A DNA stretch of 64,000 nucleotides from Dictyostelium discoideum. Taxonomy: Eukaryota. The stretch is taken from the NCBI GenBank assembly GCA_000004695.1, contig CM000152.2:5536001-5600000 (forward strand). The letters run 5' to 3'. Each line of letters begins with the position of its first letter. Positions within the stretch are counted from its first letter, which is position 1. The notes beneath the pieces were generated by a model. The model saw only the letters and a program-made list of their open reading frames with translations, was not told where the DNA came from and did no database searches. Below are positions 42,510 to 49,237 of this stretch, piece by piece. The position numbers and the translations under genes were made by a program.

Positions 42510-43875
42510 CTAAGCTTGATGATGATAAAGGAAATTTTAAAAAAAAAAAAAAATCCTCGTTATTTATGATTTCTTCTGATACATCATCGAGACACCATGC
42601 CAATGCCACCATCCTATCTGCCATATCTTCCAAGGCAGGTTTGCCTCATTGAAAGAATTGTACTCCAAGTTTCTGGTTGTGAAAACTGAACTATCACCAC
42701 AAATTAACAAGAAGCTCCTCCATTTTCTTGGGATAATTTCCAAATATTGATAAAAAAGATGTTTGCAAAATTTGCCATTTAAATTATTTGATGTGTAATT
42801 ACATTTTTAAAAAAAAACAATTTAAAATATATTTATATTATAATTAATTACTTATATTTGTTAATGATTATTTTATTTATATTTGTTAATAAAATAAAAA
42901 ATAAGGGAATTTTAAAAGAGCTTTAAATAGTTTCTTGATTTACAACGAATTCAAATTTTTAATTTTATTAAATTTTATTTTAATTATTTTTTTATTTATT
43001 TTATTTTAATTTTTTTTTTTTTTTTTTTTTTGAAATTCAATGGTTATGGATATTTATTTAACAAATCAAATTATTTAAAAGGTATGTTAATTTATTGATT
43101 ATTTAAAAGGTATGTCAATTTTTTTATTGATTTTCTATTTTAATTTAAAAAGTTTTTAAAATCTTTTGGGAAAATGAAATGGAACAAAAAAAAAAAAAAA
43201 AAAATAACTTAATAATATTTAAATTATTTATTATTATTTTTAATATAGAGCCTAAGTTTATTAAAAAAAAAAAAAATTCATTAACTCCCATAACCATAAT
43301 CTAATCAAATAAATCAATATTTATCAGTTATCTTTTGGAAAATGAATAAAAAGTAAAAAATAAAAATAATTTAAAAACAATAGTAAGGAAATTCAACCAA
43401 TATTTAATTTTATTTACCCCCTCACCATATTAAAAATAATTATTATTTTAAGTTATTATAACTAAAGATAAAAAAATTATTATTAATATTAAAGTAATAT
43501 TATTAGTTATGGATTCAAAGTGAAAAATAAAAAAAAAGTAAAAAAAACTGGATTAAAAAAAAAAAAGATCACCTGAACACCTTAAAGAAAGATTGGAGAG
43601 AAGATTGAATGCATTACAATTAGGTGTAGAAATTGGTAATGAATATAGAAATGATAAAGTTAGACAATCACATAGGGGACTCCAACATTTTCAAAAGAAC
43701 AATATCAATTATTGGTTACCATTGTTGTTGAATTGGTTAAAAAAAAAACAAAATTTAGGTATGAATGAAATTGCTCAATTTCTTAATAATAATCAATTAA
43801 ATAAATAAAAGAAAAATAAAACTTTTTTTTTTTTTTTGGCGAGTTGTAAATTAAAATTTTATTTACTGTGTTGTT

Positions 43876-45670
43876 TTAACAAGATGGAGTGCCAGTTATT
43901 GGAGTGAGTGATGTTGATCTTTGGATGTAACCAAATTGGTGAGCACCATTTACAGGGATTTCACCTAACCAACTTGGGAGTTTGTAATTGTTGGTTGAGG
44001 TTTGATCAGCATTCCATATGTCTTGAACGTTTTGTAATTGGAAGTTGAAACCTCTTACTGGTTTAGAACCTTTGTTATTGATGGTAGCATCAACTTGAAT
44101 ATAGTAAACATTGTTACTGTACCATTGATTAATAATCTTTTGGGTAACATTTGCTGAACACGCTGATGGAGTTGGACTTGGTGTTTGAGTTGGGGTTTGT
44201 GTTGGTGTTTGTGTTGGGGTTTCAGTTGGTGTTTGTGTTGGGGTTTCAGTTGGGGTTTGTGTTGGAGTTTGAGTTGGAGTTTGAGTTGGTGTTTGAGTTG
44301 GAGTTGGGGTTTGGGTTGGGGTTGGAGTTGGAGTAGTTGGTTTAGTTGGTTTAGTGTTACCAAAGTATCTGGATGGTCTTGGGCATTCTCTGGTCCAGTT
44401 TTCTTTATTGTTTGGAAGAAAAAAAAAAAAAAAAATAATAATTAGTTTATATTATCTTTTTTTAAAAAATAATAGATTAAAAAAAAAATGAAATAAATAA
44501 TTACCTTGACAAACTGGTACAACACTCCAGCCTCCAATGGTACCACAAAGACTTGGGAAAAATGTATCGGTAATATTTTCTAAAACTCCACCAATTAAAA
44601 CAGTATTATGATTAATACCATAACCTAATTTGAAGATTTCATTGGCATCCATTGGTAATTGATTGAAGCAACGTTCGCAATACATAACTGAAACATATGA
44701 TGCAAAAATAACTTTATCAAATTTAGTCCACATGGCAGCTGCTGAGCACCTATTTTTTTTTTTTATTAAATTATGAAAAAAAAAAAAAAATATTAATAAG
44801 AATAAAAAAAAAAAAAAAAAAAAAAAACAATTTAATAAAATAAAATAAAAAACATACATTGGACATGGTTCACCAGTAGTATACAAATAATGATCTTCCC
44901 AAGTAGCTTTACCATAGAGATCAGTGCTATATTTATATGAATTTAGTTAGAAATATTTAAATTTTTCTTTTTTTTTTTTTTTTTTTCTTTAAAAAAAAAA
45001 TCTTCCAAAGAAATAATAATAAATAATAATAATAATAATAACTTACCAATTCATGATGGCTTTAACTTCACCATGATACATTCTTGAACCACCAGTGTTG
45101 GCACCAGTACACATTAAAGTACCGTTTTTGTGAACAATAGCAGCACCAAATTTAGAATTATTCTCAACAGCAACATTAATTGCACTAATATTTAAAATAA
45201 AAAATATATTTTAGAATAAAAAATAAAAAATAAAAAATAAAAGAAAAATAAAAGGAAGTTGATATATTTACATTCTCATATATTTTGCATGGAATTGTTG
45301 ATCATCCTGTAGTTAATATAATTATTTTAAAAGTTAATAATAATAAAAATAATAATAACAATAATAATAATGTGTAATAACAATAAAGAAAATATAACTT
45401 ACTGGCGATAAATCTTTGAATTGAGTTAAATCTGACTATATGTTTTGATTGATAAAAAAAAAAAAAAAAAATGAAAAATTAGTTTTTTTTTTTGCAAAGC
45501 AAAAATAAAAGAAAAAATGTGTAAAAAAATAAAAAAATAAAAAAAAAAAAAGATTAATAAATTACAGGTGCAATATCGAAATAAGCTGATTTTGGACAAT
45601 TGTTTTTATGTGCTTTTGCAGTTGAAAAAGCAATGATTAATAAAATTAATAAAGAGTAAATTAATTTCAT
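43876..45670 (-). CDS. Secreted Fcy1-type cytosine deaminase (CDA-fold zinc deaminase) fused to a Thr/Pro-rich linker and a C-terminal ~95-aa carbohydrate-binding-like domain. About seven exons on the minus strand; the ATG is at 45670 and the stop at 43876-43878.
   Basis: Exon 1 encodes a signal peptide (MKLIYSLLILLIIAFSTAKA). The deaminase core runs QQFHAKYMRIAINVAVENNSKFGAAIVHKNGTLMCTGANTGGSRMYHGEVKAIMNC|TDLYGKATWEDHYLYTTGEPCPMC|SAAAMWTKFDKVIFASY. It aligns with yeast cytosine deaminase Fcy1 (HGEISTLENCGRLEGKVYKDTTLYTTLSPCDMCTGAIIMYGIPRCVVGEN), with the HxE and PCxxC zinc motifs at canonical spacing. The last exon encodes a (PTQT/PTET)n linker and then SACSANVTQKIINQWYSNNVYYIQVDATINNKGSKPVRGFNFQLQNV...NYKLPSWLGEIPVNGAHQFGYIQRSTSLTPITGTPSC. 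All junctions are GT..AG with consistent phases. Exact exon ends are approximate. Confidence 0.55.
44150..44340. repeat. Degenerate 12/24-nt tandem repeat (GGTGTTTGAGTTGGAGTT... on plus) encoding the (PTQT)n linker of the secreted deaminase
   Basis: About 15 near-identical 12-mers on the plus strand, in frame on the minus strand. Confidence 0.8.
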
Positions 45671-45681
45671 TTTTTTATGAT

Positions 45682-45724
<43 letters not shown>

Positions 45725-47349
45725 AAGTTAATTATTTAATTAAAAAAAAAAAAAGAAGAGATAGGTAATGTTACAAGTGTAATAATATTGAAAGTAATTA
45801 ATATCAGAAAAAGAAAAAAAGAAAAAGAAAAAAAGAAAAAAAAAAAACAAAAAAAAAAAAATAAATAAATAAAAGATTTTTTAGTCTCCTCAAAATGAGA
45901 ATAGTTTGAAAATAATTATTTTAAAAAATTAACCAATCATCTGAGCACAAGCTTGTAATTAATAATAATAATAATTTTGTGATTTTATCGTGATTGGGAC
46001 ACAATATTATTATGAGAAAAATAGTATACAATAATTTTATCTAAAGTATTTTAGATTTTTAATCAATGATTGGCTAAAAAAAAAAAAAAAAAAAAAAAAA
46101 TTTAGATTTGGGAAGATATTAAAAATTGTGTGGGCGAGGGGGGTCAGCAATGAACGATGATTTTTTTTTTATTGAAAAACATTACAATAATTTTATTTTA
46201 TTTTTTTTTTTTTCTGCCGAGCCAATCAAAAAATTATCTCGTTTTACGATTATTAGAAATAATTCGTTTTGTCGAAATTTTACAATCAAAAAACCAAGAA
46301 CACAAAAAGGAAATCGTTTTTGGTCAAAAATATTCAACAGAAATTAAAAAGAACACAATATAACTTTCTTTTATTGATTTTTTTTTTTTTTTTTTTAAGT
46401 TTTTTTTTTTTTTTTTTATCTATTTTTTTATTTTCATTTTTTTTTTATTTAAAAACTTAAAAAGAAAAAAAAAAAAAAAAGAAATAATTTTTATGACATA
46501 AATTCATATACTAAATAAAGTAATATTTATCTAGATTATCATTATTAATAATAATAAAAACAATTAAAATTATTTAAATAATCTTAATTGGGCAAAATAA
46601 AAATTAAAAAAAAGGTGGTTAGAATGTGTATACTTGTGGTTAAAGAATAAAAAAAAATAAATAAAAAAAAAATGTGAAACTTGAAAATTTAAATTAAGGA
46701 ATGTTTTTTATGTAATACACATGTTTTAAAAGCAAACCCCTTAACAGTAAACACACAGTTGTGTTCAGTGTAATGTAAACACAAAAAAAAAAAAAAAAAA
46801 AAAAAAAAATAATACTAAAAAATAAATTTATTTTTTAAAGTCAAAAGACGTTATATACAAATAAAAATAAAAAAAATAAAAAAAAAATAATTTCTTTGAA
46901 AAATTACAGAAAATAAAGAAAATCTTAAAAAACCAATAATGCAACGGTTTTTAAATTTATTTTTGTACTCCCTAAGCTAAAGGGTACTAGTATTTTAATT
47001 ATTTAATTTAAAAATAATTTTTTCAACTTTTTTTATTTTTATTTTTTTTTTATTTTTATTTTTATATTTTTTCTCTTGTAACCCACCAAACTTAGCCGAC
47101 ATATGTGAGGTGGAGGGTTTGCATGTAATCACATTTTTTTATAATTGTTTTTTTTTTTTTTTTTTATAAGTTTTTTTTTTTTTTTTTTTCTTTTCTTATG
47201 TTCTTAAAAAAAAAGTAATAATAATATAATAATAATAAAAGTTTAAAAAAAAATAAAAAATAAAAAAAGACCAAAGTTATAAATATATTTAAAAATAAAA
47301 ATAAAAACTTTATAAAAATATCTAAAGAAATAAAAAAAAATAAAATAAA

Positions 47350-47939
47350 ATGACATTCTTGAGTAAAAAACCTCAAATATTTAAAAATATTGAAAAAGAT
47401 ATAAATAAAATAAAATTTAAAAAATCAAATAAAATAAAATCAGATTGTAATAATAGTAATAATAAAAATGGTTTGATAGAGTGTATATCAACTTTAGAAG
47501 ATGATAATCCATGGGATGTTTATACCAAAATAATGAAAGAAGAAGGATTTTTAAAAAGTTGTATATTAGATTTAAATGATGGTGAAGTTAATAGTAGTAG
47601 TGGTGCATCACCATTAAATGTTGCATACCAAGAATACCAAGAAATTAAAAATATTTTGGAAGGTAATAATTCAATTTATATAAATTGTGACTCAACTAGA
47701 TTCTTTATATCAAATTCAAATGACATAATGATTACTGGTATAAGTTCAAATTCATTATCATTCATATTACGAAGAACTGCAAATAAATGTATTATTGGAA
47801 TTTTTCAACCTTCAACAATTCTAGTCGACCATGCTCATTGTAAAGTCTCTGATATTTATAATAAAATTACAAATTTTGATAAAAATGAAAGAATTACAAA
47901 TTTAATTTTTTCATTCTCCGAAGATAGTATAAAAAATAT

Positions 47940-47949
<10 letters not shown>
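47350..47949 (+). CDS. Profilin-like protein A (199 aa) with an N-terminal Lys/Asn-rich extension
   Basis: The C-terminal ~125 aa follow the profilin pattern. PWDVYTKIMKEEGFLKSCILDLNDGEV matches Dictyostelium profilin SWQAYVDEQLVGTGHVTKAAILGLDGGV. TRFFISNSNDIMITGISSNSLSFILRRTANKCIIGIFQ matches [38 protein letters not shown]. A C-terminal helix ...VSDIYNKI follows. It is a tandem paralog of 48485-49237. Confidence 0.5.
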
Positions 47950-48484: not shown

Positions 48485-48595
48485 ATGTCCTTTTTAAAAA
48501 AAAGAAAGAAGAAATCAACATCAACACTAACATTAAATAGTAATAGCAATAATTCTAATATTGTTTGTGTAAATAATAATAATAATAATAATAAT

Positions 48596-48656
<61 letters not shown>

Positions 48657-49235
48657 TAAATAGTCATGGTATCAATTTAATAATTAATAAAAAAATTAAA
48701 AAATTAACATCAAGTACAAGTTGTCCAAATATGTTAACAATAAAAGAAGAAGAAAATGAAAAATATAATAATAATAATAATAATAATTCCGATAATTTAA
48801 ATGATAATTTAAAAGATACAATAATATTAAATTGGAATAAATATACAGATAAATTAATAAAACAAGGTTATTTAGAATGTGGTATTTTAGATTTAGATAG
48901 TGGTGAATTAAATAGTAGTAGTAGTTGCAATAGTAGTATTAGATTTATAATTAGTTATCAAGAATGGCAAGAAATTAAAAATATTTTACAAGGTAGTTAT
49001 TTAACAACAATAAGTTGTTCAAAAAAAAGATTCTATGTAGTTGCCTCAAATGATTTCATAATTGCTGGTCGTGATTCTCAAAATCAATCTTTTATTCTTA
49101 GAAAAACTCAAACTAAAGCAATCATTGGTATATTTAATATGAATAAATTACAAATTGATGATGCTCATAAACTATTAAATGATTTATATAATGAAATTAT
49201 AAAAGATGATAAAACTGAAATTTATCCAGTTGAAT

Positions 49236-49237
<2 letters not shown>
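48485..49237 (+). CDS. Profilin-like protein B (250 aa) with an N-terminal poly-Asn extension
   Basis: NWNKYTDKLIKQGYLECGILDLDSGEL...KKRFYVVASNDFIIAGRDSQNQSFILRKTQTKAIIGIFNMNKLQIDDAHKLLNDLYNEI fits the profilin fold (W..Y.D..L...G....AILGLDGG ... KKYFVL....I.GKKG..G..V.KT...I..G.Y.E......A...VE.L.DYL). A poly-N tract is encoded by (AAT)n at ~48573-48660. Confidence 0.5.

Follow-up and report, generated by a model that had tools for sequence, protein, structure and literature searches.

The CDA-fold deaminases that act on bases and nucleosides are classically cytosolic salvage or tRNA-editing enzymes. What could such an enzyme do outside the cell, and on which compound would it act? The question is raised by a gene of Dictyostelium discoideum whose predicted product combines a signal peptide and a deaminase domain with a C-terminal carbohydrate-binding module of the CBM49 family. 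The gene is located on the minus strand of a stretch of 64,000 nucleotides (assembly GCA_000004695.1, contig CM000152.2, positions 5,536,001 to 5,600,000 of the forward strand), which is called the window in the following and to whose numbering all coordinates refer; it extends there from 45670 to 43876. The explanation that we favour, with a probability of roughly 0.6, is that the product is an extracellular hydrolytic zinc deaminase held on cellulose. The gene has already been called in genome annotations and its existence is not new, while a literature search found no paper on the gene, on its family or on the deaminase-CBM49 architecture.

Gene model and domain organization

The coding region begins with an ATG at 45670 and ends with a TAA stop codon at 43878-43876. 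It is divided into seven exons by six introns, all of which are bordered by GT and AG, and the joined exons comprise 1152 nucleotides encoding 383 amino acids without any internal stop codon. Exon 1 (45566-45670) contains the signal peptide (residues 1 to 20, nucleotides 45670-45611) and the start of a conserved N-terminal extension including Cys25. According to the splice model and the alignment of paralogues, exon 2 (45403-45435; residues 36 to 46, SDLTQFKDLSP) also belongs to this family-conserved extension. The deaminase domain starts in exon 3 (45272-45306, phase 2), where residue 51, the first of the Pfam match, lies at approximately nucleotide 45294. Exon 4 (45047-45184) encodes beta1-beta2, helix 2, the zinc-binding and catalytic residues H95-G-E97 (45075-45067) and a conserved N103-C104-T sequon, exon 5 (44858-44926) the strand HYLYTTGE and the first part of P-C125-P-M, and exon 6 (44505-44749) the remainder of PCPMC (C128), helices 3-4, beta4-5 and the start of a Cys-rich tail (C151, C154, C195, C207). 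The first part of exon 7 (44402-43876), at 44356-44402, codes for ENWTRECPRPSRYFGN, the C-terminal segment conserved in the family; in each paralogue its homologue forms the very end of the protein (...CPRPSRYFG(N/F), then stop). Exactly at the position of the paralogues' stop codon, the alignment shows the beginning of a Thr/Pro-rich linker of 63 residues (44167-44355; residues 225 to 287) with PTQT/PTET repeats. It is followed by the CBM49 (43879-44166; residues 288 to 383), which contains Trp301, Trp338 and Trp353 and has Cys290 and Cys383 at its ends.

Three independent lines confirm that the gene model and the deaminase-linker-CBM49 fusion are real. The fusion needs no splicing, because the deaminase tail, the linker and the CBM49 share one open frame inside exon 7. 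In the independent annotation of GCA_054883475.1, a gene with identical DNA and an identical span of 1795 nucleotides yields a product of 383 residues. A second strain labelled D. discoideum (GCA_054859355.1, L010) possesses a syntenic gene, also annotated with 383 amino acids, whose protein is 97% identical, a value that holds for the CBM49 part as well. Between the two strains the 1152 exon nucleotides differ by 32 substitutions and no indels, resulting in eight amino-acid changes and an unbroken reading frame, whereas in the introns and flanks 83 mismatches and 189 gap columns were counted. The Nei-Gojobori ratio of non-synonymous to synonymous substitution rates (dN/dS) amounts to 0.10 for the coding sequence as a whole; the deaminase part has a value of 0.11, the linker one of 0.07 and the CBM49 one of 0.19. 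Since it is low in each part, both halves of the fusion are coding and constrained. The same splice sites, open reading frame and annotated span bear out the seven-exon minus-strand model of the original prediction, which had been derived from the letters of the sequence.

The divergence of L010 deserves a remark of its own. Over the region 43676-45870, its exons differ from the window by 2.8% (dS approximately 0.10) and its non-coding DNA by about 9% with many indels. This is high for variation within a species and may point to a cryptic species.

Both domains of the spliced product scored well above the curated Pfam cutoffs. The dCMP_cyt_deam_1 model (PF00383) matches residues 51 to 143 (E = 6.6e-18, 64.9 bits, cutoff 25), and the CBM49 model residues 293 to 369 (E = 4.2e-25, 88.3 bits, cutoff 23.4). 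The CBM49 module alone gave 91.9 bits (E = 3e-26), next to a weaker CBM_2 match (2.8e-4). The zinc and catalytic motifs H95-G-E97 and P124-C125-P-M-C128 are intact. A signal peptide, a CDA-fold domain with HGEVKAIMNC, HYLYTT and PCPMC, a Thr/Pro linker and a C-terminal carbohydrate-binding-like domain had all been proposed beforehand, and all of them were found again in the spliced protein, with HxE and PCxxC retained. The N-terminus, MKLIYSLLILLIIAFSTAKA/HK (the slash marks the presumed cleavage site), shows charge, a hydrophobic core (Kyte-Doolittle 3.2) and alanine at -3 and -1, i.e. an Ala-x-Ala pattern; a second hydrophobic segment is present nowhere else in the 383 residues. The mature polypeptide has a mass of 40.2 kDa, 12 cysteines and six N-glycosylation sequons, and eight of the cysteines of the protein are non-zinc residues. 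Its deaminase part is slightly acidic (isoelectric point 6.3), and the last helix of this part, ENITDTFFPSLC, lacks basic residues. The binding face of CBM49 is formed by three to four conserved Trp residues (PMC6541295), to which, in the tomato and Dictyostelium modules, Trp301, Trp338 and Trp353 may correspond. When the CBM49 module was used by itself in a word-index homology search, no candidate donor came up.

A dictyostelid family with different C-terminal ends

To place the gene among its relatives, 1.84 billion protein representatives were searched exhaustively by HMMER with the family alignment. This search gave 38 matches below 1e-30. Matches spanning the whole region from the signal peptide to the Cys-rich tail came from Tieghemostelium lacteum, Synstelium polycarpum, Cavenderia fasciculata, Dictyostelium species and unidentified eukaryotic metagenome contigs. 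A word-index search, performed on a protein collection that lacks the exact 383-residue sequence and, as it seems, also the 97% identical protein of the second strain, retrieved Dictyostelium proteins only, all of them deaminase-only and none more than 77% identical. In D. discoideum the family includes at least EAL71481, DDB_G0272030, DDB_G0282171 and DDB_G0272442. The identifier of DDB_G0282171 is close to that of tupA, and it was considered as the gene of the window; it is, however, a separate paralogue of 227 amino acids on the same chromosome. Over their first 224 residues, the deaminase-only paralogues of D. discoideum and their orthologues show 60-77% identity to the protein described here, and they share the signal peptide, the cysteine pattern and the ...CPR.SRYFG end, but they comprise only 221 to 242 amino acids and possess neither linker nor CBM49. 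Within the window, no paralogue of the deaminase or of the CBM49 domain was detected.

The intron content of the family members is also variable. The gene described here contains six introns in 1.8 kb, whereas four paralogous loci (L001, L002, L003 and L008) measure 742 to 912 bp and contain one or two. Either these paralogues lost introns (or are retrocopies), or the six-intron copy is ancestral.

In 20 dictyostelid members H95, E97, C125 and C128 are invariant, and seven further cysteine columns as well as an N-C-(S/T) sequon after the HxE helix are conserved. Proteins folding in the secretory pathway would be expected to show such conservation. All full-length members begin with a hydrophobic N-terminus except P0035, which is an atypical gene model. 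The protein of the window is therefore predicted to be exported, on account of its signal peptide, its eight non-zinc cysteines and six sequons, and the cysteine columns and sequon that it shares with its relatives.

Different ends were found attached to this common body. Eight of 18 full-length relatives have a C-terminus resembling a glycosylphosphatidylinositol (GPI) signal, i.e. a Ser-rich stretch followed by a hydrophobic tail of 15 residues (Kyte-Doolittle >2.2). Such ends were seen in non-group-4 dictyostelids (P0024, P0026-P0033) and in none of the D. discoideum-group members retrieved. In the T. lacteum protein P0024 (L012, 10001-10907), the GPI-signal-like tail is combined with a TPVPTPTPTPTPT spacer, a TP linker. 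P0051 carries a C-terminal WSC carbohydrate-binding domain (8e-19) and looks like an independent case of the same enzyme tethered to a glycan. Together with P0083, it comes from JGI metagenome contigs of about 1 kb that represent a divergent, eukaryote-like branch of the family (HGEINAIINFTN, acidic linkers). The Cavenderia protein P0032 was examined as a possible second CBM49 fusion and rejected; its tail of 100 residues gave only a weak CBM49 match (E = 0.004, 17.8 bits), which does not reach the cutoff. The PCxxC cysteines are no longer present in P0036 and P0043. In P0036 (D. cf. discoideum, 429 amino acids), P0035 and P0043, H-S-E is kept and PCxxC is replaced (AEPDSLSS), and P0036 has in addition a long, highly charged tail rich in Lys, Asp and Ser. 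By their sequences, these three proteins are apparent pseudo-deaminases within the exported family.

The original prediction had called the architecture unusual, and a Pfam census agrees with it: among the best 150 family representatives of the exhaustive search no CBM49 match was obtained. The canonical CBM49 fusion is thus known only from D. discoideum in a comparison that left its siblings D. firmibasis, D. citrinum and D. dimigraforme outside. Taken together, the alignments place the gene as one paralogue of a dictyostelid-wide, putatively exported family whose members differ mainly in the C-terminal anchor, which would be free, GPI-like, WSC or CBM49.

Outside the dictyostelids, the highest-scoring relatives are bacterial proteins with export leaders, which reached 120-147 bits with a hidden Markov model (HMM) of the dictyostelid sequences. 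Among the closest 31 non-dictyostelid sequences inspected, at least 19 have such leaders (12 Tat-like and seven Sec-like, as assigned by a crude classifier), and a few more were recognized by eye, e.g. in P0045 and P0065. The bacterial clade with Tat or Sec leaders comprises P0038, P0041, P0044-P0048, P0053, P0055, P0059, P0062, P0067, P0072, P0074, P0077, P0082 and P0085, whose products are presumably periplasmic or secreted. Several of them are of low-GC, Legionella-like composition, which makes a gene transfer between amoebae and their bacteria possible. In the literature no experimental characterization of an exported bacterial TadA/GuaD-like deaminase, or of a periplasmic CDA-fold deaminase, was found.

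Proposed mode of action and possible substrates

According to the favoured explanation, the signal peptide would direct the protein into the secretory pathway, where, as the conserved cysteine columns and the sequons suggest, it would be disulfide-bonded and glycosylated. The catalytic domain should adopt the CDA fold of the helix-4 division, a three-layer alpha/beta/alpha arrangement in which helix 4 precedes strand 5, as does the model of a paralogue. H95, C125 and C128 would serve as zinc ligands and E97 as proton shuttle, so that, by the mechanism of the superfamily, an exocyclic amino group on a heteroaromatic ring would be replaced by oxygen and ammonia released. The Thr/Pro linker may act as an extended spacer and is probably O-glycosylated. 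Judging from other CBM49 proteins of D. discoideum, the CBM49 would anchor the enzyme to the cellulose of the slime sheath, the stalk tube or the spore coat. CBM49 proteins of D. discoideum bind cellulose (PMC6541295) and are numerous among the signal-peptide proteins of culminants and fruiting bodies (PMC12821622). In the part of the latter proteome that was covered, three deaminase-only paralogues appear: DDB_G0282171 with a log fold change of +7.4 in fruiting bodies, DDB_G0272030 with values of +1.8 in culminants and, later, +4.9 in fruiting bodies, and DDB_G0292096, which was detected there only in culminants and fruiting bodies. Cellulose binding, timing and the class of substrate are points that we infer. 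Most likely the substrate would be a free small heterocycle (a purine, a pterin, a pyrimidine base or a nucleoside) and not tRNA, because the protein is predicted to be extracellular and because its closest relatives are bacterial proteins with Tat or Sec leaders.

Several observations weigh against this explanation or lower the confidence in it. The signal peptide was judged by hand and not by SignalP. The evidence for the fold comes from a model of the paralogue P0001, not of the protein itself, and a single-sequence AlphaFold model of the CBM49 was poor (pLDDT 54). No transcript, peptide or activity record was found for the CBM49-bearing gene: in the part of the proteome tables covered, its expected accessions (EAL66295-66299) did not appear, and a literature search on the Dictyostelium secretome yielded no usable match. 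Moreover, in D. purpureum and P. violaceum neither the deaminase nor the CBM49 domain is encoded at the syntenic locus. Because the gene is absent from this position in the two species, the fusion would be young and could be functionally marginal.

As to the type of deaminase, a search with the single sequence placed the guanine deaminase of B. subtilis (1e-8) and the cytosine deaminase of yeast (2e-8 to 6e-7) about equally close. The family profile matched PDB entries of TadA with 1.4e-22, of guanine deaminase with 2.4e-22 and of cytosine deaminase with 1e-13 to 1e-15. This profile included two bacterial sequences, and the test was repeated with the HMM of the 20 dictyostelid members only. 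Guanine deaminase then scored 58 bits, Fcy1 50 and the TadA of E. coli 48; the reference sequences of all three had been partly checked against alignments. The AlphaFold model of P0001, which is 77% identical, has a core with pLDDT >90 and a Cys-rich tail of low confidence. In a Foldseek search with this model, TadA was the best match, and the guanine deaminase NE0047, Msmeg3575 and plant guanosine deaminase were matched too. The motif E-P-C, finally, is that of TadA and guanine deaminase. It seems that the family represents another lineage of exported deaminases, of the TadA/GuaD type. The determinants of specificity in B. subtilis GuaD include Asp114 in a 'GFDD' loop and a swapped C-terminal Tyr156. 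The alignment to this enzyme (1WKQ) ends at chain residue 115, and GFDD is absent here and present in P0042 and P0052. The corresponding loop contains a conserved acidic residue in the motif 'LPMD160' (D161 in the conservation table, 75-90% conserved), a candidate counterpart of Asp114 of GuaD. Since the specificity loops of guanine deaminase and Fcy1 do not align, the base acted on cannot be read from the sequence.

One candidate substrate is of particular interest. Extracellular purines, pterins, folate and ammonia are morphogens or chemoattractants of Dictyostelium, and guanine deaminase acts on the 2-amino-4-oxo-pyrimidine moiety that pterins carry. If the family deaminates purine- or pterin-type compounds outside the cell, it would be directly relevant to Dictyostelium signalling. 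It is conceivable, albeit unlikely, that the protein of the window or one of its paralogues is the folate/pterin deaminase of Dictyostelium, which inactivates folate by removing the 2-amino group from the pterin ring. This enzyme was 'yet to be cloned' in a 2021 review (PMC8616412), and no later cloning was found in the literature. An article (PMC4794234, citing Bernstein 1981) describes secreted and cell-surface forms and a secreted enzyme of about 40,000 Da, which may be compared with the 40.2 kDa of the mature polypeptide, even though such a match ignores glycosylation and oligomerization. The family has both free and GPI-signal-like members, one of the latter in T. lacteum, from which pterin deaminase activity has been reported (PMC13197243), and guanine deaminase is marginally the best-scoring characterized relative. 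On the other hand, characterized pterin deaminases are described as enzymes of the amidohydrolase superfamily, and none of the D. discoideum members seen has a GPI-like tail. In addition, folate chemotaxis is a function of vegetative cells, but the paralogues detected belong to late development, and the cellulose anchor suggests development too. A broader version of this idea, improbable as well but stated here for its consequences, is that the exported family includes the folate/pterin deaminase, that the CBM49 paralogue is a matrix-immobilized version clearing a pterin- or purine-type signal in the cellulose sheath, stalk or sorus, and that eukaryotes have in this family, next to SNADs and AADs, a second and independent class of secreted deaminases. 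Self-generated gradients of folate are shaped by folate deaminase, which breaks down pterin acrasins and has remained uncloned for about 45 years. The family would provide a short list of candidate genes for this enzyme, which is central to work on self-generated gradients.

Another explanation to which we give little credit is a role in defence. The protein would then be a secreted nucleic-acid deaminase displayed on the fruiting-body matrix, comparable to the metazoan SNADs, the secreted AID/APOBEC-like deaminases (AADs) of dictyosteliids and bacterial toxin deaminases. According to a 2018 survey, no deaminases of eukaryotes other than the SNADs and the dictyosteliid AADs are secreted (PMC5889660). 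Krishnan et al. (2018) suggest that secreted deaminases, some of them dictyosteliid, act in immunity. The TadA match in the structural comparison and a Pfam MafB19-deam match (35.5 bits, cutoff 27) are compatible with this proposal. The latter, however, occurs in 149 of the 150 best relatives and does not discriminate, and no AID/APOBEC Pfam model matches at E <= 1. The loop-7 position occupied by D103/D104 in S. aureus TadA corresponds to Tyr146-Val147 here and to Ser/Thr with Ile/Asn in most relatives, so the loop-7 aromatic residue of AADs is not conserved. The acidic deaminase part is devoid of the basic C-terminal helix of TadA, and the low dN/dS argues against an arms race. T. lacteum P0024, moreover, is situated on another contig than the immunity locus reported by Krishnan et al., without MACPF or peroxidase neighbours. 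The exported family is probably distinct from the dictyosteliid AADs.

More doubtful still is the interpretation with which the analysis began, that of an exported Fcy1-type cytosine deaminase converting extracellular cytosine to uracil. It was derived from HxE, PCxxC and the LYTT strand, which do resemble Fcy1, and yeast cytosine deaminase is a significant match. The shared motifs, however, are common to the whole clade of TadA, guanine deaminase and cytosine deaminase, wherefore the substrate cannot be called cytosine. Moreover, guanine deaminase and TadA are equally close, Fcy1 is absent among the top 50 structural matches of the P0001 model, and the nearest relatives are uncharacterized exported bacterial proteins. 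Fcy1 has S-P-C in place of E-P-C. Its C-terminal lid helix with Trp152 and Asp155, which closes over cytosine, could not be aligned, as the alignments that HMMER produced with chains of cytosine deaminase stop at approximately chain residue 112-116. A DWFED-like motif is not present, and the C-terminal part of the deaminase is the Cys-rich tail. A core 'nearly superimposable' on Fcy1 was therefore not substantiated and the label 'Fcy1-type' was abandoned. The distance between NC and PCPMC, given as 22 residues for both proteins, is actually 19 here and 18 in Fcy1.

That the protein is a matrix or structural component whose deaminase domain is no longer an enzyme, e.g. a ligand-binding module, is very improbable: the family does contain apparent pseudo-enzymes without the PCxxC cysteines (P0036, P0043), but the four catalytic and zinc residues are intact here, as they are throughout the 20 relatives, and the deaminase domain is under purifying selection. 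The weakest alternative, an annotation artefact in which an adjacent deaminase gene and CBM49 gene were wrongly joined, takes up the fact that the annotated paralogues all end with ...RYFG(N/F), the very point at which the linker begins, but can practically be dismissed, since the paralogue-like C-terminus, linker and CBM49 are continuous within one exon without any intron being invoked, the frame is kept without indels in a strain whose non-coding DNA is rich in them, and two independent annotations call the 383-residue product.

If the favoured explanation of a deaminase held on cellulose is correct, a further exported family of eukaryotic deaminases, of the TadA/GuaD type, exists across all major dictyostelid groups, and its members carry interchangeable anchors to the surface or matrix (GPI-like tails, WSC, CBM49). 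Even if the substrate should turn out to be mundane, the gene would be a clear case of domain accretion, in which loss of a stop codon or an insertion at the exact C-terminus retargeted an enzyme to the cellulose matrix.

Genomic neighbourhood and comparison with known systems

The window contains about 20% G+C. The neighbourhood of the deaminase-CBM49 gene includes an FNIP-repeat gene and the adjacent tupA (DDB_G0282189). Directly upstream of its ATG lies a run of about 46 A residues (45680-45740, minus strand), and T-rich tracts follow further upstream (45800-45870). The A/T-tract composition is that of a typical Dictyostelium promoter. Two adjacent intron-less open reading frames on the plus strand (47350-47949 and 48485-49237) encode 199 and 250 amino acids and are paralogues of each other with the common motifs G(F/Y)L..(C)ILDL..GE(V/L)NSSS and SFILR(R/K)T. 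For one of the two, the corresponding gene of strain L010 has a Pfam match to Profilin (PF00235), and the pair looks like tandem, divergent profilin-like genes.

Among characterized enzymes, the guanine deaminases of B. subtilis (1WKQ) and Nitrosomonas (NE0047) are the best or joint-best matches. They share the CDA fold and E-P-C-P-M-C with the protein described here, and Asn42 of the B. subtilis enzyme aligns with Asn87. They are cytosolic, however, only about 21-30% identical and without appended domains, and neither their GFDD loop nor the swapped Tyr can be aligned. Fcy1 (1UAQ/1P6O) has in common with it the HGE...NC helix, the LYTT strand and PCxMC, but it differs by its cytosolic location, by S-P-C and by the lid (W152/D155). 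TadA provides the best Foldseek and profile matches, and here the alignment extends through beta5 and the last helix. TadA, too, is cytosolic, and it acts on tRNA, the anticodon loop of which is bound by its basic C-terminal helix. By contrast, the protein of the window is predicted to be exported, is slightly acidic and has an insertion of seven to eight residues in the loop after beta4.

More similar than these enzymes are the bacterial exported TadA/GuaD-like proteins (e.g. P0038, P0041, P0047, P0048, P0055, P0067), which share HGE and YTTGEPC(P/A)MC and have a 'Q(I/L)x(I/L)xS' loop and a 'GGVL...TD..F' helix in common with the amoebal family. What separates them from it is the lack of the conserved disulfide cysteines, the N-glycosylation sequon, the CP.SPY N-terminal extension, the Cys-rich tail, the linker and a carbohydrate-binding module. 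The SNADs and dictyosteliid AADs, as described by Krishnan et al. (2018), resemble the family in the helix-4 division (predicted here from the model of a paralogue), the signal peptides, the lineage-specific expansions and a Cys-containing C-terminal extension. That work records the dictyosteliid AADs in D. fasciculatum, T. lacteum and Acytostelium and does not report them for D. discoideum.

With regard to its overall construction, the protein corresponds to the CBM49 matrix proteins of D. discoideum (CelB, St15, StaB, EcmC/D, the GH5 cellulase and the cysteine protease fusions) and to the Luke lectins of Acanthamoeba. In all of these a signal peptide and a spacer of Ser, Thr and Pro precede a single CBM49, which is C-terminal and has conserved Trp residues, and they bind cellulose and are late-developmental. 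A deaminase is not among the partners of CBM49 in the matrix proteins described, where the module is combined with glycoside hydrolases, proteases or expansin-like modules, or stands without a partner.

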